Of a stretch of 64,000 nucleotides of DNA, positions 3,440-62,620 are shown in pieces. The position numbers were made by a program, and so were the translations under genes. The notes beneath the pieces are model-generated. The model had not been told where the DNA came from, made no database searches, and saw only the letters and a list, made by a program, of their open reading frames with translations. This DNA comes from Candidatus Saccharimonadales bacterium. GTDB lineage: Bacteria; Patescibacteriota; Saccharimonadia; Saccharimonadales; UBA10212. Where the stretch lies: contig DASTXL010000002.1 in NCBI GenBank assembly GCA_035758565.1, positions 275,118-339,117 on the forward strand, written 5' to 3'. Positions within the stretch are counted from its first letter, which is position 1, and the number at the start of each line of letters is the position of its first letter.

Positions 3440-3549
3440 TCGTCGAAGCTTGCGCCACTACCTCGTTTTGCCCGTGGGCAAAAGCTTCGGTTTATGGCTA
3501 CGCTTCTCCTCTCAAGATTTTAAACAGCTACACTTGGTTTAAAATCTTG
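3440..3549 (-). repeat. structured tRNA 5' leader element, copy 1 (abuts tRNA-Lys UUU)
   Basis: Hairpin, then AGAGGAG, GCC, CGAAGC-hairpin(TTTTGCC/GGCAAAA)-CGAGG, GGCGCAAGCTTCGACGA, then tRNA +1. Confidence 0.75.
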
Positions 3550-12092: not shown

Positions 12093-12117
12093 TGGTGGGG
12101 CTGGTTGGATTTGAACC
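12093..12117 (-). repeat. duplicate of the 3' terminal 25 nt of tRNA-Ile2 (T-arm half, acceptor, CCA)
   Basis: tggtggggctggttggatttgaacc is identical at 12093-12117 and 12138-12162. Confidence 0.85.
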
Positions 12118-12137: not shown

Positions 12138-12213
12138 TGGTGGGGCTGGTTGGATTTGAACCAACGACCAATCAGTTATGAGCCGACTGCTCTAACCCCT
12201 GAGCTACAGCCCC
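12138..12213 (-). tRNA. tRNA with CAU anticodon, probably tRNA-Ile2 (lysidine)
   Basis: 76-nt cloverleaf, loop CTCATAA. Variable/T region TTGGTCGTTGGTTCAAATCC resembles E. coli ileX. tilS is present in the window. Confidence 0.7.
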
Positions 12214-12816: not shown

Positions 12817-12923
12817 CCCCACAAAATCAGCGAAGCGTATTTTGTGGGGTAGAGGAGCAGCCTAACCGTAAACCGAAGCTTTTGCTGAAAAGCAAAACGA
12901 GGTAACGGCGCAAGTTGCGACGA
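12817..12923 (+). repeat. structured tRNA 5' leader element, copy 2 (abuts tRNA-fMet)
   Basis: ccccacaaaat...attttgtgggg hairpin, AGAGGAGCA, CGAAGC-hairpin(GAAA loop)-CGAGG, GGCGCAAGTTGCGACGA. Confidence 0.75.
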
Positions 12924-15375: not shown

Positions 15376-15452
15376 TGGTAGCAGCGACTGGATTCGAACC
15401 AGTGACCGCAGGCTTATGAGTCCTGTGCTCTAACCAACTGAGCTACGCTGCC
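15376..15452 (-). tRNA. elongator tRNA-Met(CAU)
   Basis: 77-nt cloverleaf very similar to E. coli metT (GGC.. GTAGCTCAGTTGGTTAGAGCAC); encoded CCA. Confidence 0.85.
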
Positions 15453-15471
15453 ACAAAAAAGTACAAAACTT

Positions 15472-15497
15472 GTTCTAACCAACTGAGCTACCCTGGC
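15472..15497 (-). pseudogene. orphan tRNA 5' fragment (acceptor 5' strand plus D-arm) fused to leader copy 3
   Basis: GCCAGGGTAGCTCAGTTGGTTAGAAC follows the leader end GCGACGC and stops in the D-arm. Confidence 0.6.
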
Positions 15498-15610
15498 GCG
15501 TCGCAATTTACGCCTCTGCCTCGTTTTGCTATTCGCAAAAACTTCGGCTTGTGGCTAGATTGCTCCTTACAAATTTTACAAGCAAGACAATCACTTGTCT
15601 TGTAAAATTT
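15498..15610 (-). repeat. structured tRNA 5' leader element, copy 3
   Basis: Hairpin with agacaagtgattgtcttgct apex, AAGGAGCA, GCC, CGAAGT-hairpin-CGAGG, GGCGTAAATTGCGACGC. Confidence 0.7.
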
Positions 15611-31497: not shown

Positions 31498-31944
31498 ATG
31501 ATCAAAGCTATTCTGTTCGATAACGACGGGGTAATGTCTAAGTGGTTATTGCCCCGGTTTAGAATGCGGCGGCTGGCTAAGCAGCTTAGGCAAGATGGAA
31601 TCAAGGTTGGCATGCTGTCTAATGTCATCTGGGGGTTTGCGCAAGTTTATAAGTTAACGCGAGGCTATGACGGCTACGATTTAGTACTGCTGTCGTATAA
31701 AGAAAAAATGTCTAAACCCAATCCGGACTTTTATATGCTGGCGGTTAAAAAATTTGGCTTAAAACCTCACGAAATACTTTTTGTCGACAACCGAGAGGAT
31801 CTACTTGTTCCCGCTCAAAAGCTTGGTTTCAAAACCCTGCACTCCAAATCGGCCAGACAACTGCTTGTAGATATCAATCATTTGTTAAGCAAAGAAAATA
31901 AAAGACCGCCTAAAAGACACCCGCATCTAATTGGGCGAGGATAG
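31498..31944 (+). CDS. short HAD-superfamily hydrolase-like protein
   Basis: LFDNDGV motif I, SKPNPD, VDN. Confidence 0.5.
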   Translation: MIKAILFDNDGVMSKWLLPRFRMRRLAKQLRQDGIKVGMLSNVIWGFAQVYKLTRGYDGYDLVLLSYKEKMSKPNPDFYMLAVKKFGLKPHEILFVDNREDLLVPAQKLGFKTLHSKSARQLLVDINHLLSKENKRPPKRHPHLIGRG

Positions 31945-32066
31945 AGGACAACGCTTTCGCTTGCTCCACCGAACCTCCGACTATTGTCAGCTTCGCCGCC
32001 GAGTGGCAGACCGGGCCTTATCTCAAAGATAAAAATAAGCTCACCAAAAGGTGGGCGTATTTTTTA

Positions 32067-32143: not shown

Positions 32144-32258
32144 TCGTCGGAATTTGCGGCTTTTCCTCGTTTTGCGGTTCCGCAAAAGCTTCGGTCTAAG
32201 CCTAGATTCCTCCTCTCAATTTAACAAAAATTGCTAAAGCGGATTTTTGTTAAATTGG
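32144..32258 (-). repeat. structured tRNA 5' leader element, copy 4
   Basis: Hairpin, AGAGGAGGA, GGC, CGAAGC-hairpin-CGAGG, GCCGCAAATTCCGACGA. Confidence 0.75.
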
Positions 32259-33348: not shown

Positions 33349-33523
33349 ATAAAAGCTGACCAATAAAATTTGGTCAGTTTTTATTTATTGAGAGTACAAC
33401 TTAAACCGATAGGCATGAATAGCCAGTTGGCTGTTCATGTTTTCCTTGCTTGACCGCCTTGCGCAATTGCTTTAGCAATTTTGTCGCAGGCGCATGATAA
33501 CTCAAGTCCTCTCACCCCGACCA
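33349..33523 (+). repeat. tRNA-trailing module: terminator, ~150-nt insert, then 22-nt repeat of the tRNA-Pro(CGG) 3' end
   Basis: tcaagtcctctcaccccgacca at 33327-33348 and 33502-33523. Confidence 0.8.
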
Positions 33524-34695: not shown

Positions 34696-34773
34696 TGGGG
34701 CGAAAGATGGGACTTGAACCCACGGCCTCCGGAGCCACAATCCAGCGCTCTAACCAACTGAGCTACTTCCGCC
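34696..34773 (-). tRNA. tRNA-His(GUG) with encoded G-1
   Basis: Loop TTGTGGC; extra 5' G opposite discriminator C; encoded CCA. Confidence 0.9.
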
Positions 34774-34890
34774 ACGTCCTCCCGTACGCCATTATCTCGT
34801 TTTGCCGCAGTAGCGTCAAAAACTTCGATTTATGGCTGCGGTCGTCCTCTCAATTTTGCAAAATCAGCGTAAGATGATTTTGCAAAATTG
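34774..34890 (-). repeat. structured tRNA 5' leader element, copy 5 (divergent 3' end)
   Basis: Hairpin, AGAGGACGA, GCC, CGAAGT-hairpin-CGAG, GGCGTACGGGAGGACGT. Confidence 0.7.
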
Positions 34891-35176: not shown

Positions 35177-35905
35177 TTAGGCTACGGGTACGACTTCGGC
35201 GACAAGCGCCAAGTGATCACTAATAGGAAGTCGGGGAGCTTCCACTCTCCGGAGCCGTAACCTATTTAGGGCAATGTGGTCAATCTGTCTGGTTGGAGCC
35301 CATGACGGATTTGTTGGCGGCCCCTCAATTACGTTAAGACCATGCTCGCTCATGCAGTCACGGGCTTCGGTGAGTTCAATATTGTAATCACCCATCAAAA
35401 TGTGAGGACCGCTACGCTGTAATAAAGCTGTTGCTGCGCGTCCAAGCATTTCGCGATTTTTTCTACCCCCAGTATGAGTTACGCCGACAGATAGCTCGCA
35501 GCCTCGAATTGCCGTCGTGGCCATAATCATATTTCGTGGCTCCGGCAAAAATTCGATGCATTGGCCCATAAGCTTGAATCTTTGCCAATCGCCTTTTAAT
35601 TTCAGTACCTCAACATTTCTAATATCGCCTCTTACCAATAGAGCATTGCCAACTCGACCTTTGCCGCGGTAGGTGCGCGTCTTAGCAAACACGTAGTTCA
35701 TTCCTGTGGCTTCTGCAGCAATTGCCGCCAGATCAATCTTTTTGGAGCGCGGTACGCCTACGTCTACTTCCTGCAGTCCAAGAATATCGGCGTCGAGCTC
35801 TTTACAGGCTGCGGCTACCAAGCCGGGATAACCGCGGCCGTAATCACCTTTTGCTCCATGCTGAATGTTAAAGGAAGCTACTCGGATTGAATCTGCCCCT
35901 GTCAT
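35177..35905 (-). CDS. endonuclease/exonuclease/phosphatase (EEP) family protein
   Basis: SFNIQHG, LGLQEV, SDHLAL motifs. Confidence 0.7.
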   Translation of the reverse strand: MTGADSIRVASFNIQHGAKGDYGRGYPGLVAAACKELDADILGLQEVDVGVPRSKKIDLAAIAAEATGMNYVFAKTRTYRGKGRVGNALLVRGDIRNVEVLKLKGDWQRFKLMGQCIEFLPEPRNMIMATTAIRGCELSVGVTHTGGRKNREMLGRAATALLQRSGPHILMGDYNIELTEARDCMSEHGLNVIEGPPTNPSWAPTRQIDHIALNRLRLRRVEAPRLPISDHLALVAEVVPVA

Positions 35906-35945
35906 GAGGCTATATTATCTAACTTATATGCAAATTAATCAACTG

Positions 35946-36122
35946 TGGTACCCCCCGGCAAGATAGCGCCACGCTTCTCCGCTCACAAATGCTCGGAATA
36001 AATTCCTGCGCGTTTGTTCGCTGCGCCGAACTTGCGACTTGCGTCAGCTGTCGCTGCCGCGTCGCAAAACCGAATCTGTCAGAAGACCATAAAAATAGCC
36101 CAGACAAGCTGGGATATTTTTA
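35946..36122 (-). repeat. tRNA-trailing module behind tRNA-Arg(UCU), ending in a repeat of its 3' end
   Basis: tggtaccccccggcaagat (35946-35964) versus tggtacccccggcaagat (36123-36140); internal gcaagttcg T-arm half at 36027-36035. Confidence 0.8.
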
Positions 36123-36199
36123 TGGTACCCCCGGCAAGATTCGAACTTGCGACCTTGAGCTTAGAAGTCTCCTGCTCTATCCAACTGAGCTACGGGGGC
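36123..36199 (-). tRNA. tRNA-Arg(UCU)
   Basis: 77-nt cloverleaf, loop CTTCTAA. The anticodon stem has only 3 Watson-Crick pairs (27:43 and 31:39 mismatched). Confidence 0.75.
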
Positions 36200-36313
36200 T
36201 CGTCGAAGCTTGCGGCCTTGTCTCGTTTTGCCTGCTCGGCAAAAGCTTCGACCTTGGCCTAGGCTTCTCCTCTAAAATTTGTGAGCAAGACAACTACTTG
36301 CCTCACAAATTTT
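36200..36313 (-). repeat. structured tRNA 5' leader element, copy 6
   Basis: Hairpin with aggcaagtagttgtcttgct apex, AGAGGAGAA, GGCC, CGAAGC-hairpin-CGAG, GGCCGCAAGCTTCGACGA. Confidence 0.75.
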
Positions 36314-36372
36314 GTTGCTACTGACTGGCCTAATGGCCACATCGTCTTCAGCTTATCGCTACTCCTCCTCTA

Positions 36373-36468
36373 CCCCACAAAATAAATTTTGCAGGGAAAC
36401 CCTAGCTCTATAGGAAAAAGAGCAGCGAGCTTGGTTTTGCTTAAGGCAAAACTCGGCTTTGCCGACGA
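36373..36468 (+). repeat. degenerate orphan copy of the leader element (no tRNA follows)
   Basis: ccccacaaaataaattttgcaggg hairpin ... AAGAGCA ... GGTTTTGcttaagGCAAAAC ... GCCGACGA. The opposite strand carries AGAGGAG next to the same hairpin. Confidence 0.4.
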
Positions 36469-36504
36469 GCGATGAGAAAAAACATAGGTTTTGTCTCATA
36501 TTGG

Positions 36505-36579
36505 TGGTGCGGGATGGGGTAGTCGAAACCCCGTCTCAAGTTTGGAAAACTTGCATATTAACCGTTATACGAATCCCGC
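36505..36579 (-). tRNA. tRNA-Gly(UCC)
   Basis: 75-nt cloverleaf, loop TTTCCAA, 4-nt variable loop, encoded CCA. Promoter TATAATCACCTCTGT lies upstream (36593-36607 on the + strand). Confidence 0.85.
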
Positions 36580-36668
36580 GCGTTAGGCGATAACAGAGGT
36601 GATTATAGCAGAATCCATCTGTCACTTAAACTTTTTAGGCGTACAATAAAACTAAAGGGGGATAAAAT

Positions 36669-37004
36669 ATGGATGAAATTTTGGTAGTCACAACAACTAC
36701 TAACGACGTGCCGGGCTATAAGGTAGTAGAGGTTTATGGTGAGGTTTTTGGTTTGATAGTTCGAAGCCGAAACATGTTCAGTAACATTGGTGCTAGCTTT
36801 AGAACAATTTTTGGGGGCGAGGTCAAAGGCTACACAACTTTATTGAGCGACAGCCGCGAGCAAGCCGTCGAGCGTATGCGCGCGAGCGCCGCCGAAAAGG
36901 GCGCTAACGCGGTTATTGGCATGAGCTTTGACACGGCCGATATAGGCGGTGTTATGAGCGAAGTCGCGGCTTACGGTACGGCCGTCAAAATCAAAAAGGT
37001 TTAG
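36669..37004 (+). CDS. YbjQ/UPF0145 family protein
   Basis: 111 aa, GANAVIGMSFD motif. Confidence 0.8.
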   Translation: MDEILVVTTTTNDVPGYKVVEVYGEVFGLIVRSRNMFSNIGASFRTIFGGEVKGYTTLLSDSREQAVERMRASAAEKGANAVIGMSFDTADIGGVMSEVAAYGTAVKIKKV

Positions 37005-38527
37005 GTTTCGTGAACGATGGTAATTTTAGCGCCTAGGCTGTTGAGTCGCTCGGCCAGATCTTCGTACCCTCTGTTTATCGTATAAATGTTGCGCAGCATT
37101 GAGGTACCGCTGGCGGCCATCATGCCAATCAGCACAATGACGGCCGGCCGCAAGCCGCTTGGGGCAACGATGTCTGCGGCGCGCCACCGGGTTGGTCCGT
37201 TGATAAAAATGCGATGCGGGTCGGCTAGTTCCATATCAACGCCAATCTTTTTCATCTCGGTGTACATTAGAGCTCGGTCTTCATAGACCCAGTCATGAAT
37301 CATGGTACGACCTTTAGCCACAGCTGCAATTGGCACAAAGTAAGGCAAGTTATCTATATTGATACCAACGCCGCCGGGCAGGGGATGTAGTTTTTCTTCT
37401 GGAGCGTGCAGTTCGCCATTGTGCTTATAAACTGTAATGTCGGCCAGGTCTGTTTGCCCGTTTTCGGCTTTATAAAATTTACTGACGTCGTACTTTAAGC
37501 CCATATGATGCAGCTTAAGAAGTTCGAGGTCTATGAATTCAATCGGCGCTCGCTTAATAGCTATTTGCGAATTTGTCGCAACCGCAGCTGAGATAAAGGT
37601 GATAGCTTCAACCGGATCCTCGCTCAAAGAATAAGTGACGTTCTTCTTGATGTTTTTAACACCGCGAATTTTCAAGGTAGGCGAACCTATGCCGTCTATT
37701 TTGACGCCCAACTTCTGCAGGTAAAAGCATAAGTCTTGAACCATATAATTGCCGCTGGCGTCTTTAATGATAGTTTCGCCTTCCATTCTAGCGGCCGCTA
37801 GAATAGCGTTCTCGGTTGCTACGTCACTCATTTCGTACATAACAACGGGATTGACAGGCTGTCTTCTATTCACTGTGATTTCGTAATGGCCACTATGAGC
37901 TTCAATGCGTGCGCCGAACTCTTCCAGAGCGTAAATGTGTGGGATTATTGTTCTGCGACCCAGTTCGCAGCCGCCGGCGTAAGGTATTTTAAACTCTTTA
38001 AAGTCATGCATCAGGGCGCCGGCCAGCATGATAACAATGCGTGTTTTGCGAGCGGCTTCTTTATTCATTTTGTCTAAGTTAAGACGCGCTGGTGGTTTTA
38101 TCTCGAGGTCGTTTCCAGGAAGCCATTTTATGTGGACGCCGATACTAGTTAAAACTTCTATAACGCGGTTAACTTCTTCAATCCTAGCCACGCGTTTTAG
38201 GCGAGTTGTGCCTTTGTTTAATAAGCTAGCGCACAATATAGCCACGGCCGCATTTTTTGAGGTTTTAACTTCTATTTCGCCGGAAAGCTCCTGGCCGCCC
38301 TCTATACGAAGGTTTACGGCTCCGCCACCCAAAGAGATTATTTGCTTGTTCAGAACATCGCTGATTCGGCCAACGGTCTCAATGCTCAAGTTTTGCTTGC
38401 CGTGCTCTATGCGGTTGACGGCCGATTGGCTGGTACCTAAACGCCGGGCAAATTCTGCTTGAGTCAGCCCGCGCTCTTGCCTTATTTGTGAAATTAATAA
38501 ACCAATTTGCTCGTTTGTCTGGTGCAT
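37001..38527 (-). CDS. murA: XRE-type HTH domain fused to a UDP-N-acetylglucosamine 1-carboxyvinyltransferase (MurA)-like enzyme
   Basis: N-terminal ~65 aa HTH (GLTQAEFARRLGTSQSAVNRIEHGK). MurA-like body with KTSKNAAV and catalytic-loop GGCELGRR. Confidence 0.8.
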   Translation of the reverse strand: MHQTNEQIGLLISQIRQERGLTQAEFARRLGTSQSAVNRIEHGKQNLSIETVGRISDVLNKQIISLGGGAVNLRIEGGQELSGEIEVKTSKNAAVAILCASLLNKGTTRLKRVARIEEVNRVIEVLTSIGVHIKWLPGNDLEIKPPARLNLDKMNKEAARKTRIVIMLAGALMHDFKEFKIPYAGGCELGRRTIIPHIYALEEFGARIEAHSGHYEITVNRRQPVNPVVMYEMSDVATENAILAAARMEGETIIKDASGNYMVQDLCFYLQKLGVKIDGIGSPTLKIRGVKNIKKNVTYSLSEDPVEAITFISAAVATNSQIAIKRAPIEFIDLELLKLHHMGLKYDVSKFYKAENGQTDLADITVYKHNGELHAPEEKLHPLPGGVGINIDNLPYFVPIAAVAKGRTMIHDWVYEDRALMYTEMKKIGVDMELADPHRIFINGPTRWRAADIVAPSGLRPAVIVLIGMMAASGTSMLRNIYTINRGYEDLAERLNSLGAKITIVHET

Positions 38528-38657
38528 TTCTATAAAATTATATCAAATATGATATCTATGGCAAAGTATTTTTTACTGCAATTTTTGATTTAAATAACTT
38601 GATACAATGGTGTCATGTTATAGCTTACTCTTAAACCCCGGCAAAGTAAAAGTAAGC

Positions 38658-39950
38658 ATGAGGATTTTAGAGATGGACGACAAGACGACCGCGCAGCTGA
38701 TTGCTGCCGAAGAAAACAGAGAGAGGGAAGGGCTAGAGTTAATACCTAGTGAAAACTATGTAAGCCGCGATGTTTTGACGGCTTTGGGCAGTGTTTTCAC
38801 AAACAAATACTCCGAGGGCTATCCGGGCAAACGTTATTACGGGGGGCAAGATTTTACCGACCCGCTAGAAACGCTAGCCATTGAGCGGGCTAAAAAATTG
38901 TTTAACGCCGATCATGCCAACGTTCAGCCACATTCTGGTGCCCCAGCTAACGTGGCTGTCTATTTTGCTTGGTTGGAACCTGGCGACACGGTTTTGGGCA
39001 TGAAGCTTGATCATGGCGGGCACCTAACCCATGGCCACCCGGTTACTACCATGGCCAAGCTTTACAACTTTGTGCGCTATGGAATCAAAGATGTTGAGAC
39101 GGGCGAAATAGACTATAACGAAATGCGCCAGGTTGCCCTGCGCGAAAAACCAAAGATTATCTTAGCCGGCTTCAGCGGCTACCCGCGCAACCTTGACTAT
39201 GCCAAGTTCGCCGAAATCGCCAATGAATGCGGCGCTATGCTCATGGCCGATATGGCCCATATTGCTGGGTTGATTGCTGGCAAAGTTCTACCGAACCCTT
39301 TTGATTACGGTTTCCATGTCATTACCACCACTACGCACAAAACTTTGCGCGGCCCGCGCGGGGGTATGATCTTAACTCGTGGCAAGGTTGGCAACCCGCT
39401 AAGAAAAGTCGAAAAAACTCTGGAGAACCTACCAACATTAATTGACCGCGAAGTCTTTCCTGGTTTTCAGGGGGGTCCGCATATGAACAATACTGCGGCT
39501 AAAGCCGTTGCTTTTGCCGAAGCGCTCAAACCGGAATTCCACAATTATGCCCAAGCCGTTTTAGATAATGCCAAAAAACTAGCCGACGAGATGATGAGCC
39601 GCGGATTCAAACTGGTTACCAACGGCACGGATAATCATTTGATTATGGCTGACGTTAACACCAGCTTTGGGGTCAATGGCCGTGAAGTGCAGGATATTTT
39701 GGACAAAGTTGGTCTAAGCGCTAATTGCAACTCTATTCCGGATGATCCATTGCCTCCATTTAGGCCTAGTGGTCTGCGTTTAGGTACGCCGGCCATGACC
39801 ACCCGCGGCCTTAAGCAAGAGCATATGGGCCAGGTGGCGGAGTGGATGAAGCAAGCAATTCTAAACCGCAGCGACGAAAAGAAACTATTGCAGCTAAAAA
39901 ACGAAGTTAAAGAGTTTAGTTTGCAATTTCCGCTGCCAAGCGACAACTAA
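38658..39950 (+). CDS. glyA: serine hydroxymethyltransferase
   Basis: LIPSENY, TTTTHKTLRGPRGG. Start uncertain (38607, 38658 or 38673). Confidence 0.9.
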   Translation: MRILEMDDKTTAQLIAAEENREREGLELIPSENYVSRDVLTALGSVFTNKYSEGYPGKRYYGGQDFTDPLETLAIERAKKLFNADHANVQPHSGAPANVAVYFAWLEPGDTVLGMKLDHGGHLTHGHPVTTMAKLYNFVRYGIKDVETGEIDYNEMRQVALREKPKIILAGFSGYPRNLDYAKFAEIANECGAMLMADMAHIAGLIAGKVLPNPFDYGFHVITTTTHKTLRGPRGGMILTRGKVGNPLRKVEKTLENLPTLIDREVFPGFQGGPHMNNTAAKAVAFAEALKPEFHNYAQAVLDNAKKLADEMMSRGFKLVTNGTDNHLIMADVNTSFGVNGREVQDILDKVGLSANCNSIPDDPLPPFRPSGLRLGTPAMTTRGLKQEHMGQVAEWMKQAILNRSDEKKLLQLKNEVKEFSLQFPLPSDN

Positions 39951-39953
39951 TTG

Positions 39954-40469
39954 TTAGCTGTCCGAAAATACAGATATATCAGGTTGCCTGAACAAGTAAG
40001 TTAGCCCTACTTTTCCTAAAACGTTATTGAAGTCTCTGGTGGATCCATTCTCGTAGCCTAAGTACAGAGCTTGGCCGATGGTTTGCCACTGTGCTGTGTC
40101 TAGCGAATCTACTACCGCTTCTAAATCTTCATCAAAGAGAGCGCGCTCCTTATTAAAACTAAGTACATCTTCAGCCAAAACGGAGTTGATAATATCTATT
40201 CTGGCTTTGATCTCTTCGGCATGAAAAACATCAAGCGTATCTGCTTTTGATGAGCCGGAAGCATCAAGCTCGCACACAAGCGAAATAAGATTAAAAAAAT
40301 CAATCGAAGATATCATTCTGGCAACGTCAAAACGCGCCAAATTAGCGGCCGATGGGTTTAGTACAAATTTTTCGACCTCAGCGGTCAGTCGATCGCGCGC
40401 TGAATCAAGAGTTTCGATTTGGCGGTCGATCATCGTTCCGCCCTGAAACTCGCCTTCGTTTATTGCCAT
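39954..40469 (-). CDS. hypothetical protein
   Basis: 171 aa, acidic, helical. Confidence 0.4.
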   Translation of the reverse strand: MAINEGEFQGGTMIDRQIETLDSARDRLTAEVEKFVLNPSAANLARFDVARMISSIDFFNLISLVCELDASGSSKADTLDVFHAEEIKARIDIINSVLAEDVLSFNKERALFDEDLEAVVDSLDTAQWQTIGQALYLGYENGSTRDFNNVLGKVGLTYLFRQPDISVFSDS

Positions 40470-40511
40470 TCAAAAAGAATAATTTTATAACAATGTTTTT
40501 GTCAAAGGTAA

Positions 40512-41540
40512 TTAAGGCAACAGTTCCGGCTCTTGCTCAAGAATAATGTCGAACATCTGCTCGACTTTATCAACAATTTTAGACTTAAATTTCAGCAGAT
40601 CAGCAGTTGATTTAGCGTGCTCATTTATTAGAACTAAAGCCTGTTTTTCGCTAGTAGCCATGCCCGTTTGCTCGTCGTGGTAACCACGGAAGCCAGCTCG
40701 TTCTACCAGCCAGCCAGCAGCTATTTTTACTCTGCCGTCGCTAGCTGGCCAGCCCTTAATTTCAGGATAATTTTCTTTGAGTCTTTCAAATTGATCAGCG
40801 CCAATTATGGGATTGGTGAAAAAAGAGCCGTTGTTGGCCACTATTGCCGGATCGGGCAACTTGGCTGAGCGAACGGCTATAACAGCATTGCGGATGATTT
40901 CTGGCGTGTAGTTTTGAACCCGATTTTGATCTAGGTAGGCTTGCAAGACTTCATAAAAGGGTGGGCGGGGGTTGGACTTTTTTAACTTCATGACTACGCT
41001 GGTAATAACAAAGCGACCGCGGTCGGTCGTCTTAAAACGACTTGTCCTGTAGCCAAAGCCGCAGTTCTTTCCAGAAATTGACCCAAAGCTACCTAATTTT
41101 TTATCGTACGCCGCCACCTCAACTAAAGTGTCTGCGATTTCGGCGCCGTAAGCACCAATGTTTTGTATCGGACCGGCACCAACACTGCCCGGAATTAAAG
41201 ACAAAAATTCAAGGCCCGACAGTTTTTGATCTACGGTCCAGGCGACTACTTCATCCCAGACCTCGCCGGCGCCCACGCGAACAGTTGCACTATTTTCATC
41301 CTCATGCAAAACTTCTTTACCCATGATTTTATTAACAATAATCAGCCCTGGGTAGCCTTCGTCACGCCAGACAATGTTGCTGCCGCCGCCAATCATAAGG
41401 CAGTCCAGACCTTGGGCCTGGGCCCAATTCACCATTTCGACCACTTCGCGCTGGGAAGCAGCCTCAGCCAAATAGCGTGCCTTGCCGCCAAGACGCATAG
41501 TGCTATAACTAGCCAAGCTTACGTTCTCAAGAATATTCAC
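40512..41540 (-). CDS. murB: UDP-N-acetylenolpyruvoylglucosamine reductase
   Basis: FAD-binding N-terminus (YSTMRLGG.A, GGGSN) and MurB C-terminus. Confidence 0.85.
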   Translation of the reverse strand: MNILENVSLASYSTMRLGGKARYLAEAASQREVVEMVNWAQAQGLDCLMIGGGSNIVWRDEGYPGLIIVNKIMGKEVLHEDENSATVRVGAGEVWDEVVAWTVDQKLSGLEFLSLIPGSVGAGPIQNIGAYGAEIADTLVEVAAYDKKLGSFGSISGKNCGFGYRTSRFKTTDRGRFVITSVVMKLKKSNPRPPFYEVLQAYLDQNRVQNYTPEIIRNAVIAVRSAKLPDPAIVANNGSFFTNPIIGADQFERLKENYPEIKGWPASDGRVKIAAGWLVERAGFRGYHDEQTGMATSEKQALVLINEHAKSTADLLKFKSKIVDKVEQMFDIILEQEPELLP

Positions 41541-41592
41541 TAATCTAATTATACTTCGCTATAGCAAATTGTGGGTGCTACAATGGTTCTAT

Positions 41593-42135
41593 ATGAGTAA
41601 TACCGACTCAAAGGGAGAATACAAGCTGTTAGGTCAGCAGCTAAAGGCCTTGCGTTCACGAGTTAACGAAAGCTTGGCCGAAGCCAGTGGCGCCGTAGAA
41701 ATTGACGCCCGAGAACTTGCCAGTTTTGAGCTGGGCGAGAAATGCCCGAGTGAAGATGTTTTGCTGCTTTTGATAAGTCACTTTGGCGCTCAAGATGACG
41801 AGGCTGTTAAGTTGTGGGAGATGGCCGGTTACGGATCAAGTAAGGTGCCTGTAGTCCAGATGCGAAACGAGCCCACTATCCAGCCGGTTCAAAACCAAGA
41901 AAACCGTGTATTATTTACCGATGTAGTTGATGTGGTAGTTAATAACTACGGCGTGGTTATGAATTTCCTGCAAGGCGGGAATCCTAATAGCGGACCGGTA
42001 ACTGTAGCTAGAGTTGGCATGAGTCGTGAACACGCCAAAAGTGTTTTAGAAGTGTTATCTGCGACTTTATCGCAAGTAGAGAAACAAAATCAGCTGCATA
42101 AAAAACAAATAACCGATCAGAATAAGACAGTTTAG
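41593..42135 (+). CDS. HTH (XRE-like) protein with a DUF3467-like C-terminus
   Basis: ATG at 41593. N-terminal HTH-like region; C-terminal VARVGMSREHAKSVLEVL. Confidence 0.5.
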   Translation: MSNTDSKGEYKLLGQQLKALRSRVNESLAEASGAVEIDARELASFELGEKCPSEDVLLLLISHFGAQDDEAVKLWEMAGYGSSKVPVVQMRNEPTIQPVQNQENRVLFTDVVDVVVNNYGVVMNFLQGGNPNSGPVTVARVGMSREHAKSVLEVLSATLSQVEKQNQLHKKQITDQNKTV

Positions 42136-42146
42136 CGTACACTTGG

Positions 42147-42161
42147 TATAATTACCCCTGT
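42147..42161 (+). promoter_or_regulatory. stable-RNA promoter motif TATAATTACCCCTGT (tRNA-Arg UCG)
   Basis: Identical to 33214-33228; lies 16 nt upstream of the tRNA. Confidence 0.5.
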
Positions 42162-42176
42162 CCCTGCCTGATTTCT

Positions 42177-42253
42177 GCCCGCGTAGCTCAGTGGATTAGA
42201 GCATCTGTCTTCGGAACAGAGGGTCGGCGGTTCGAATCCGTCCGCGGGTACCA
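42177..42253 (+). tRNA. tRNA-Arg(UCG)
   Basis: 77-nt cloverleaf, loop CTTCGGA, encoded CCA. Confidence 0.9.
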
Positions 42254-42432
42254 AAATAAAACCTCCAGCTTGTCTGGGTTTTTGTTTTGGTAATTCTGCC
42301 CGGCAGAATTGAACCGCCGAGGCGGTGCGGCGTAGTGAAAATCGCGCGCAAGAATTTATTCTGAGCACGATTGAACGAAGAAGTGCTTGCTCAGAGAGCA
42401 AGTGTGCGATATCCGTCCGCGGGTACCAAAAT
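42254..42432 (+). repeat. tRNA-trailing module behind tRNA-Arg(UCG), ending in a 22-nt repeat of its 3' end
   Basis: atccgtccgcgggtaccaaaat at 42236-42257 and 42411-42432; internal ggcggtgcg T-arm half at 42321-42329. Confidence 0.8.
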
Positions 42433-44751: not shown

Positions 44752-44866
44752 AAAAATTTGCGAGACAAGTAATTGTCTTGCTCGCAATTTTTAAGAGGAG
44801 CAACCTAGCCTAAAAACGAAGCTTTTGTCTATAGACAAAACGAGTTATAGGCGCAGGTTGCGACGA
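44752..44866 (+). repeat. structured tRNA 5' leader element, copy 7
   Basis: Hairpin with agacaagtaattgtcttgct apex, AGAGGAGCA, GCCT, CGAAGC-hairpin-CGAG, AGGCGCAGGTTGCGACGA. Confidence 0.75.
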
Positions 44867-44943: not shown

Positions 44944-45132
44944 AAAATAGAGCCGCACTTTAGGTGCGGTTTTGTTTTTGGAACGCTTAATCGAGCAAGC
45001 CAACTGCTTGGCTTGCGTGGGGCTCGAACAGGCGCAGCGATGTCGAACAATTCAGCGAGACCGCGAGCCGGGCCCGCGAGCGAAAAGCAAAGCTTTTCGA
45101 CTTGTGGGTCGAAGTCCCCGATGGCCCTCCAA
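44944..45132 (+). repeat. tRNA-trailing module behind tRNA-Lys(CUU), ending in a 20-nt repeat of its 3' end
   Basis: agtccccgatggccctccaa at 44925-44944 and 45113-45132; extra T-arm half GGGGCTCGAA at 45019-45028. Confidence 0.8.
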
Positions 45133-52811: not shown

Positions 52812-52918
52812 CAGAAACATAAGACAAGTAATTGTCTTGCTTGTGTTTCTGGAAGGAGCAATCTAGCGCTAGGCGAAATTTTATTTATAAAATAGAGCAA
52901 GCGTGTAAATTGCGACGT
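52812..52918 (+). repeat. structured tRNA 5' leader element, copy 8 (variant hairpin 2)
   Basis: Hairpin with agacaagtaattgtcttgct apex, GAAGGAGCA, GCGC, CGAAATTTTAT-tta-ATAAAAT, GCGTGTAAATTGCGACGT. Confidence 0.7.
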
Positions 52919-53133
52919 GGTCCCATCGTCTAGCGGTTAGGACACCGGGTACCTTCACCCCACAAAACAAGTTTTGCGGGGACCCCGATCATTCCGGCAA
53001 CAGGGTGAGAACTGCCATTTGGCAGTTCGCAAGGCCACAGGCGCGACGGCGCCGAGGAGGGCCCGACCGAATTTTCAGCAGAAAATTACGGGTGGGTCGA
53101 TTCCGAATCGAACGTATACAATTAGTCGACAAT
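52919..53133 (+). pseudogene. disrupted tRNA-Glu copy: intact 5' half, then degenerate pieces of the remainder separated by hairpin-containing inserts
   Basis: 52919-52950 is identical to 53134-53165. CATTCCGGCAACAGGGT and GGGTCGATTCC match later parts of tRNA-Glu. Confidence 0.55.
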
Positions 53134-53208
<75 letters not shown>

Positions 53209-54922: not shown

Positions 54923-55061
54923 CCATAATCGTGTACAATAGGCTTAAGAGCGCTTACGCTTATGAGACAAACCTATGGTTTTTCTCATCGCTCGTCGGCA
55001 AAGCCGACCCATACACGGGCAAGCTCGCCGCTCTTTTCCTTTTATTAAAAACGAGTGGGCA

Positions 55062-62499: not shown

Positions 62500-62620
62500 A
62501 AATTTTCTAAGCCAGCGAGCGGCTTTGCCGACTCGAGCGCTTAGGAAATTTAGAGGAAGAACAAAGTCGTAAGTTGAAGTCTTGATATTCAAAACGAAAC
62601 AACGGCGCAAGTTCTGACGA
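62500..62620 (+). repeat. structured leader element, copy 9, abutting the tmRNA 5' end
   Basis: Long hairpin, AGAGGAAGA, GTCG, TGAAGTCTTGAtatTCAAAACGA, CGGCGCAAGTTCTGACGA, then GGGGCTGA. Promoter TTGGAA-18-TATAAT at 62420-62449. Confidence 0.7.

Follow-up and report, generated by a model that had tools for sequence, protein, structure and literature searches.

A conserved hairpin interrupts displaced copies of tRNA 3' ends in Saccharibacteria: possible footprint of a small insertion cassette

The two tRNA-Arg genes of the window (the whole stretch of 64,000 nt analysed here, from a Candidatus Saccharimonadales contig) are each followed by a module in which the 3' part of the same tRNA appears a second time, broken within the T-loop by an insert with a conserved hairpin. 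This layout was first noticed in a sequence-only reading and is real at both loci. Its framing as a tRNA-Arg feature proved too narrow, since tRNAs of 15 identities are concerned. The general rule is that the hairpin marks a break in a displaced duplicate of the end of the adjoining gene. We tentatively favour the explanation that a small insertion cassette (~150–190 bp), lacking an integrase, left the modules as its footprint at the T-loop position of tRNA genes. On much the same balance, the split pseudo-T-arm may be one junction of that cassette, a DNA-level footprint and no part of a working second tRNA.

The window is part of a Saccharibacteria (TM7) chromosome and contains a tmRNA and 12 tRNA genes; a protein adjoining the modules has a 100% identical counterpart in a Candidatus Saccharimonadales MAG. 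Listed in the orientation of each tRNA, the parts of the two Arg modules are:

36123..36199 (−): intact tRNA-Arg(UCU) (ARAGORN; Rfam tRNA, 62.4 bits)
36090..36122 (−): terminator-like hairpin of the Arg(UCU) module (terminator scan; A-tract, CCCAG/CTGGG stem, T-tract)
36061..36089 (−): inverted (antisense), diverged copy of the tRNA-Arg(UCU) 3' half, 22/29 identical
36039..36060 (−): apex loop/hairpin between the inverted and direct copies
36027..36038 (−): direct copy of tRNA-Arg(UCU) nt 47–58 (GTCGCAAGTTCG), 12/12 exact, comprising the variable-loop end, T-stem 5' strand and TTCG
35965..36026 (−): insert at the T-loop position (covariance model, 68.5 bits, E 3.6e-18)
35946..35964 (−): direct copy of tRNA-Arg(UCU) nt 60–77, comprising the T-loop end, T-stem 3' strand, acceptor 3' strand and ACCA, with one extra G
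42177..42253 (+): intact tRNA-Arg(UCG) (ARAGORN; Rfam)
42254..42287 (+): terminator-like hairpin of the Arg(UCG) module
42288..42320 (+): inverted, diverged copy of the tRNA-Arg(UCG) 3' half, 23/30 identical
42321..42329 (+): direct copy of the T-stem 5' strand and loop start, GGCGGTGCG here versus GGCGGTTCG in the tRNA
42330..42410 (+): insert of 81 nt with the motif at 42346–42366 and a longer tail hairpin (covariance model, 55.4 bits, E 2.9e-14)
42411..42428 (+): exact direct copy of tRNA-Arg(UCG) nt 60–77, 18/18, ending at CCA

All of the second-copy pieces that had been assigned to the two Arg tRNAs are present, far beyond chance; for an exact 18-mer, about 1e-8 occurrences would be expected at random within 300 nt. 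The Arg(UCU) copy of nt 60–77 reads ATCTTGCC GGGGG, one extra G, then TACCA, its last base being the exact end of CCA, and 62–63 nt separate it from the other direct-copy piece. The insert between them holds the conserved hairpin stem (36017..35985), the motif GCGCAGGAATTTATTCCGAGC (36011..35991) and a tail with a small hairpin. The inverted copy reads TGGTCTTCTGACAGATTCGGTTTTGCGAC, where the perfect complement would be TGGTACCCCCGGCAAGATTCGAACTTGCGAC, and the adjoining apex is homologous to the apex of a tRNA-Arg module in another genome (L067). The terminator-like stem can be extended by pairing of the tRNA's ACCA with TGGT, and its hairpin core CCAGCTTGTCTGGG is common to the Arg(UCU) and Arg(UCG) hairpins. 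By alignment the two modules are homologous over their entire length; both contain CGCGCARGAATTTATTCYGAGCA, for which 100 shuffles gave 0 matches. The insert start had also been read correctly (GCGCAGCGA / GCGTAGTGA). The proposed likeness of the insert's end to the leader family was not borne out: it was based on the short GGAGAAGCGT in a single module, where the family varies (GGAAAAGG, GGCAAAGC, GGAAGAGT), and a covariance model that included this stretch matched no leader in the window at E<10.

Three further tRNA genes of the window are followed by related modules:

44944..45131 (+): module behind tRNA-Lys(CTT), with the same insert start (GGCGCAGCGA), a different inner hairpin and the 3' copy at 45106–45131
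31932..32066 (−): module behind tRNA-Pro(UGG), with nt 47–58 at 31981..31970, an insert of only 20 nt and the 3' copy at 31949..31932
33349..33523 (+): module behind tRNA-Pro(CGG), with a 22-nt exact 3' copy at 33502–33523

The Pro(UGG) module is a deletion derivative, full-insert versions with the same T-arm being found behind tRNA-Pro in two other genomes (L039 and L030). A 3' duplication of tRNA-Met at 12093–12117 is contiguous and lacks the hairpin. The covariance model of the hairpin has only two matches in the 64-kb window, and both are in the tRNA-Arg modules.

The core of the insert is a hairpin (P3) with a constant asymmetric internal loop, GCRCA/GAGC. Its covariance model was built from 30 copies. 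In these 30 sequences, 98.5% of cells are paired, and 25 cells carry double changes compared with 5.1 expected; the observed covariation was reached in 0 of 500 shuffles. Copies without the exact motif covary in the tip stem (GGAAU/AUUCC, GGAGU/ACUCC, GAAGC/GCUUC and CAAGC/GCUUG) around an unchanged internal loop. The outer stem and tail fall into several subtypes, so that the inner loop region is the most conserved part and the termini vary. The hairpin is under structural selection. Searches with the Rfam 15 covariance models, at gathering score and at E≤10, matched the tRNA itself and nothing else, and the hairpin, probably bound by a protein, is an undescribed motif whether the modules are read as insertions or as functional RNA. 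A kink-turn was considered for the internal loop and rejected on inspection, the loop having no 3-nt bulge followed by G·A/A·G pairs.

The T-loop insert recurs well beyond the window, which decisively removes the objection that no other locus might have it. The 21-nt insert core GCGCARGAATTTATTCYGAGC is found at 62 loci of one-per-species genomes, nearly all of them metagenome-assembled genomes (MAGs) of Saccharibacteria/Saccharimonadales, with up to six copies in some genomes. The covariance model detects 69 copies in the fetched loci which, with the 2 in the window, make 71 copies in about 50 Saccharibacteria genomes. Fifty-eight of the 71 lie 67–285 nt (median 92) behind a co-oriented tRNA, with 15 amino-acid identities represented, and none lies behind a tRNA in the opposite orientation (58:0).

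The arrangement around the hairpin is equally regular. In the parsed modules (n=37), the last 18 nt of the upstream tRNA are repeated 20–50 nt past the motif, and this 3' arm has 0 mismatches in 20 of the 37. A downstream 3' copy is present behind 36 of the 98 evaluable tRNAs in all sequences analysed, 9 of the 36 being without the exact motif. Some 45 pseudo-T-arms were found about 150 nt downstream of tRNAs, and essentially none is uninterrupted: in essentially all modules an insert of 20–86 nt splits the direct copy at the T-loop. Decay is also evident. About 40% of the 3' arms are truncated after the T-stem strand and have lost the CCA, and the homologous Arg module of L067 combines a variant hairpin with a truncated 3' arm. 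One relative (L063) has the tRNA-Arg(UCG), its terminator and the downstream gene (66% identical) and no module. The tRNA-Gln modules have perfect 3' arms though their other parts have diverged between species. At two loci (L038 and L016), 1.2–1.7 kb lie between the tRNA and the module; in L038 this interval contains two ORFs, judged by eye to be putative hydrolase-like proteins.

The same hairpin also splits duplicates of other gene parts. At one locus (L047) a 5' pseudo-copy of tRNA-Met with a leader attached is interrupted by it in the anticodon loop, and the intact tRNA-Met then follows. In two genomes (L025 and L056) it lies just behind smpB (confirmed by Pfam), within a second, diverged copy of the SmpB tail in which it breaks a Lys codon; the two tail types are swapped between these genomes, and the inverted copy is absent. 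The left junctions have T(T/A)CG in common, as TTCG in T-loops and TACG in smpB. Tandem arrays of modules are present at five loci (L008, L019, L030, L039 and L049). A second terminator-like hairpin directly follows the 3' arm in 17 of 39 modules, and the hairpins that follow module-bearing tRNAs are stereotyped, sharing 10-mers about 10 times as often as those of other tRNAs. The 5' leaders of module-bearing tRNAs also carry terminator-like hairpins. The inverted copy, the covarying hairpin, the tandem arrays and the non-tRNA contexts had escaped the earlier reading, and they point to an insertion element rather than a two-locus curiosity.

Pfam scans of 29 window ORFs revealed no recombinase, transposase or HUH nuclease, and none was found adjoining any module. 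Clustering of ORFs within 3 kb of the motif copies yielded no recurrent protein family; the largest cluster covers 5 of the 62 loci and is consistent with orthologous loci. A motif scan of viral contigs gave 0 matches, a metagenome scan with the neighbouring Exo_endo_phos protein recovered no relative, and an exact-protein lookup of the SHMT gene returned no match on record. Neither a free nor a cargo-bearing form of the cassette was seen, and literature searches found no description of it, the sole related study in Patescibacteria being about group I introns (PMC13011429).

An inverted arm is present in 27 of 27 well-parsed modules, with 70–85% identity to the perfect complement. Against the T-stem 5' strand plus UUC it is 93–100% pairable; against the acceptor strand the figure is 44–78% per position, where 37.5% is expected by chance. 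Minimum-free-energy (MFE) folds form the helix with the T-stem 5' piece in 14 of the 27 modules, the helix with the 3' arm (P1) in 7, and both together in 4, Arg(UCU) among them. Mimicry of an acceptor stem was consequently rejected as a general conserved feature, given the weak acceptor complement and the few MFE folds with that helix. The sense strand folds more stably than the antisense strand in 16 of 27 modules (p=0.08), with little between the two strands. C>T is the commonest substitution in the inverted arm; these counts are not normalised for base composition and are not taken as evidence.

In the favoured insertion model, the cassette, read from the T-loop, would begin with a replacement tRNA 3' end down to CCA, a terminator-like hairpin and an inverted copy of the tRNA 3' half, and would continue with a short loop, the direct T-stem 5' strand plus TTCG, and the conserved structured hairpin. 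The last ~18 nt of the tRNA-Arg(UCU) gene would then be supplied by the cassette, and the 18–19 nt past the insert (T-loop end to CCA) would be the displaced original tRNA 3' end, which at many loci would have kept its own terminator. We infer a single-strand fold, a strand exchange and an enzyme acting as follows. In a small circular single strand, two oppositely oriented copies of the target would pair as a hairpin resembling the T-arm duplex, with the conserved hairpin, or insert, as the enlarged central region of the folded strand. Opening of the circle immediately 3' of the insert would let it join the tRNA gene at T-loop position 58/59. A recombinase supplied in trans would exchange one strand there, much as XerCD acts on the folded attP(+) of phage CTX, and this enzyme would need the conserved hairpin as a cis site, either to recombine or to release the element from tandem copies by rolling circle.

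The order of parts in the modules, tRNA[1–58] / 59–76 / hairpin / inverted copy / loop / 47–56 / insert / 59–76, matches exactly what is predicted for an integrated single-strand att hairpin. The model would explain why the 3' copy ends exactly at CCA and often has its own terminator, as expected of a displaced real tRNA 3' end; it also accounts for the formation of arrays. The stereotyped post-tRNA hairpins fit a terminator carried by the cassette. The co-oriented placement of 58 of the 71 copies behind tRNAs, with none reversed, argues for insertion, as do the structural selection on the hairpin, the same hairpin in disrupted tRNA-Met and smpB duplicates beside an intact gene, and a patchy presence accompanied by decay (L063 without a module, the Pro(UGG) deletion derivative, truncated 3' arms). 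The use of both the T-loop and the anticodon loop is likewise explained by insertion, these being the places where elements that enter tRNA genes classically cross over, in the account cited by PMC9897764 (Williams 2002).

Several observations fit the model less well. No linked enzyme, viral-contig match, or free or cargo-bearing form accompanies the modules. The inverted arm has decayed far more than the hairpin, whereas even decay would be expected after irreversible integration; this difference suggests that the hairpin keeps a function after insertion. Complementarity to the acceptor is weak, the full two-arm fold appears in the MFE structure of 4 of 27 modules only, and the smpB case has no inverted copy. 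The perfect 3' arms of otherwise diverged modules would require recurrent insertion or homogenisation. We know of no precedent for a cargo-free element of ~170 nt.

The conservation of the hairpin, the fixed orientation and the perfect 3' arms keep another explanation alive, which we regard as possible though rather less than probable: that the modules encode a structured RNA with a function for the host, situated in the 3' trailer of the tRNA and made by read-through past the first hairpin. A tRNA-specific helix, formed by the inverted copy and the direct T-arm copy, would present a protein-binding hairpin, and the 3' end would mimic the cognate T-stem, acceptor and CCA. Such an RNA could take part in 3' processing, control termination, or serve as decoy or sensor towards tRNA-handling enzymes. 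The hairpin bears the marks of a selected RNA motif, since its asymmetric internal loop is constant, its stems covary and its tips resemble tetraloops, and it has been kept at low copy number in about 50 species-level genomes with its orientation to the upstream gene fixed at 58:0. The 3' arms, perfect in 20 of 37 parsed modules beside a diverged inverted arm, fit selection on the RNA as well, and the frequent second terminator after the module would define a transcript end. A terminator-like hairpin nearly always lies between tRNA and module, however, and no promoter was found inside the module; on the other side, the leaders also carry terminator-like hairpins, so such hairpins need not stop transcription. 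The near equality of sense and antisense folding (16/27, p=0.08) may count against a selected trailer RNA; the patchy presence with its clear decay and deletion derivatives and the poorly maintained acceptor-like helix do so, and tRNA mimicry leaves the hairpins in the smpB tail and the anticodon loop unexplained.

Local duplication, by slippage, fold-back or unequal recombination at the terminator hairpin, could also have produced dispensable copies into whose loop positions a REP/MITE-like hairpin then moved, with no site-specific integration. We consider this improbable, though parts of it have counterparts in the data: the contiguous tRNA-Met duplication without a hairpin, the near-contiguous T-arm copy of the Lys(CTT) module, and the smpB case, which resembles a tandem duplication whose second copy contains the hairpin. 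Fold-back copying at the terminator hairpin would yield an inverted arm, and the common T(T/A)CG left junctions recall the target choice of IS200/IS605-type elements. Yet the near absence of uninterrupted pseudo-T-arms among the ~45 makes duplication and insertion look coupled, and slippage would not be expected to place a boundary exactly at CCA. Dispersed REP/MITE families also differ from this hairpin, which has 2 copies in 64 kb, both behind tRNAs, and whose conservation peaks at the inner loop region and not at the termini. As for splicing, archaeal non-canonical tRNA introns occur at T-loop position 56/57–58/59, where the insert lies, and the insert might be read as the T-loop intron of an alternative 3' exon that is spliced or trans-joined into a second version of the tRNA. 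Abundant tRNA introns are recorded for Patescibacteria (PMC13011429). The copy lacks nt 1–46, the 5' two-thirds of the tRNA, however, and an intact tRNA lies directly upstream. The insert of 62–81 nt is far below the size of a group I intron, no Intron_gpI or other ribozyme model matched at gathering score or at E≤10, and the 3' arms are often truncated. To our knowledge no splicing endonuclease exists in bacteria, and the intron explanation is close to exclusion.

Among known systems, the closest kind is the attR-type tRNA gene fragment of integrative elements, and the closest mechanism is CTX/IMEX folded-hairpin integration or the integron attC. In integrative elements, an intact tRNA precedes a direct repeat of its 3' part that starts in the T- or anticodon loop and reaches as far as the tRNA 3' end (Reiter 1989; Williams 2002; van der Gulik 2023, PMC9897764), and the modules contain such a repeat in the 18-nt copy ending at CCA. 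The inserted DNA of those elements supplies the functional tRNA 3' end and the terminator, as it would here, and tandem arrays are seen in both. The repeats of integrative elements, however, bracket islands of 9–23 kb, compared with about 150 nt here, and an island brings an integrase and cargo, neither of which appears in the 3-kb neighbourhoods or among the 29 window ORFs scanned. Whereas the att core copy of an island is contiguous, the repeat here is split at the crossover position by the conserved hairpin. The cassette differs further in its extra inverted copy and in the presence of the same small unit behind 15 tRNA identities.

In the attP(+) site of CTX, two att copies face in opposite directions at a distance of 90 nt, and one of them has an enlarged central region; a host recombinase acts on the site, with arrays as the typical outcome (Val 2005; Das 2014, PMC4246890). 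The modules show the same close pairing of inverse target copies with a central enlargement in one, the same integrated order, the same lack of a recombinase of their own and the same tandem arrays. The target of CTX/IMEX is dif, whereas that of the cassette would be the tRNA T-arm, and the enlargement amounts to 5 extra nt in CTX compared with a structured hairpin of 55–80 nt in the cassette. At about 170 nt and with no genes, the cassette is also unlike these phages and elements, and the likeness is one of sequence architecture. Integron cassettes share with the modules a promoter- and recombinase-less unit, tandem placement at one site and a terminal imperfect hairpin in which structure is kept over sequence. 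The GTTRRRY core of attC is absent here, however, the T-loop reading GTTCGAA, and no intI or attI was seen. In addition, the conserved residues of attC are at the base of its hairpin, as opposed to the inner loop of the cassette hairpin.

Short palindromic repeats offer a looser parallel. The REP/BIME, Correia and RPE elements are, like the insert, non-coding imperfect palindromes of ~55 nt, found here too in a reduced genome, and RPE elements in Rickettsia sit inside genes or RNA genes. The cassette hairpin departs from REP and MITE families in its very low copy number, its nearly constant tie to tRNAs and its position, always within a duplicated gene fragment; those families have many dispersed copies with conserved termini, whereas here the termini vary and the inner loop is conserved. 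A 3' arm with NCCA paired upstream would resemble the acceptor/T minihelix of tRNA-like structures (the tmRNA domain, mascRNA, viral TLS) or of RNase P external guide sequences, but acceptor complementarity is weak and the CCA is missing from many copies. Group I tRNA introns have a core of 200 nt or more within a complete tRNA, in contrast to the 62–81-nt insert and partial tRNA of the modules, and those of Patescibacteria occupy anticodon position 35/36 (PMC13011429).

The wider implications depend on which explanation holds. It is rather unlikely, though conceivable, that the modules represent a new class of stable tRNA-cognate RNAs (regulatory, processing or decoy, with the hairpin on a helix that copies the T-arm and 3' end), or else elements without genes that are still active and, guided by the hairpin, rewrite the 3' ends of tRNAs. 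A partial tRNA copy is commonly taken for the scar of a kilobase-sized island with an integrase. Here the same scar logic appears in miniature and in series, as a gene-less unit of ~170 bp made of its target's own sequence in both orientations plus one hairpin, and it occurs at tRNA genes of every identity across a phylum whose genomes measure ~1 Mb. Such fragments can mislead tRNA annotation in genomes of the candidate phyla radiation (CPR). If the modules are insertions, the cassette would be the smallest known site-specific element and a second, independent case of integration via a folded attachment hairpin. If they function as RNA, ultra-small episymbiotic bacteria would possess a hitherto unrecognised family of RNAs, each cognate to one tRNA.

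Seven tRNAs and the tmRNA of the window are immediately adjoined at position +1 by a copy of the leader family, a recurrent sequence of ~75 nt with the conserved parts AGAGGAG...CGAAGCTTTTGC-N4-GCAAAACGAG...GGCGCAAGYTNCGACGA. Because promoter-like -10 boxes lie ~100 nt further upstream of these copies, they look like long structured 5' leaders; a comparison with Rfam gave no family match. Just 5' of the AGAGGAG leader stands a long conserved hairpin, AAAATTTGYGAGRCAAG-TART-TGTCTTGCTCRCAAATTTT, with A- and T-rich flanks. This hairpin has the look of a terminator that lies within the 5' leader of the tRNA, where it may serve as an attenuator. A further hairpin, TCGGCAAAGCCGA, is included in an inverted repeat of 39 nt (97% complementary).

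3440-3520, 12851-12923, 15453-15575, 32144-32222, 34773-34860, 36200-36280, 44790-44866, 62545-62620: leader family copies
36273-36313, 44753-44793, 15578-15601, 52821-52844: long hairpin with its A- and T-rich flanks
36453-36491: inverted repeat, copy 1, between tRNA-Gly and the tRNA-Arg(UCU) leader
54969-55007: inverted repeat, copy 2, just 5' of the TIM gene

In the stretch 52919-53133 the leader adjoins a 5' pseudo-copy of tRNA-Glu, which is split by an insert at the anticodon loop, mirroring the 3' modules, the cassettes behind tRNAs in which a direct copy of the tRNA 3' half is split in the T-loop. Intact tRNA-Glu begins at 53134, ~130 nt past the end of the pseudo-copy. Another displaced 5' fragment is the 18-nt copy of tRNA-Met nt 7-24 that lies between a leader and the intact gene. 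Behind a tRNA-Met at 12138-12213, the T-arm, acceptor strand and CCA are copied exactly and contiguously (25 nt) after a gap of only 20 nt, and the terminator stands after this copy, not after the gene.

52919-52950: tRNA-Glu pseudo-copy, nt 1-32
43 nt between the two pieces: insert at the anticodon loop
52994-53005: tRNA-Glu pseudo-copy, nt 40-51
15474-15491: copy of tRNA-Met nt 7-24
15376-15452 (-): intact tRNA-Met
12138-12213 (-): tRNA-Met with contiguous 3' copy
12093-12117: the 3' copy

The conserved hairpin that forms the core of the module inserts is also found in a duplicated 3' end of smpB. Two loci from other genomes, L025 and L056, carry the smpB 3' end in tandem duplicate, and the second copy contains the hairpin within a Lys codon (motif at 414-434 in L025 and at 1109-1129 in L056). 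The two SmpB tail variants are in swapped positions, functional versus displaced, between these genomes. A further motif-bearing contig, DATLEQ010000052.1, is labelled Candidatus Limnocylindrales (Chloroflexota), and its tRNA-Gln module is similar to those of Saccharibacteria; the label is probably a binning error, with a transfer being less likely.

The window stretch 35177-42253 was compared with L063, which comes from a relative. In the window the tRNA-Arg(UCU) and tRNA-Arg(UCG) genes are in inverted orientation, ~6 kb apart. In the relative, tRNA-Arg(UCG) immediately precedes the Exo_endo_phos gene and HTH-MurB follows; Exo_endo_phos in the window comes after tRNA-Arg(UCU). The two orders point to an inversion, either between the Arg loci themselves or between the homologous modules behind them.
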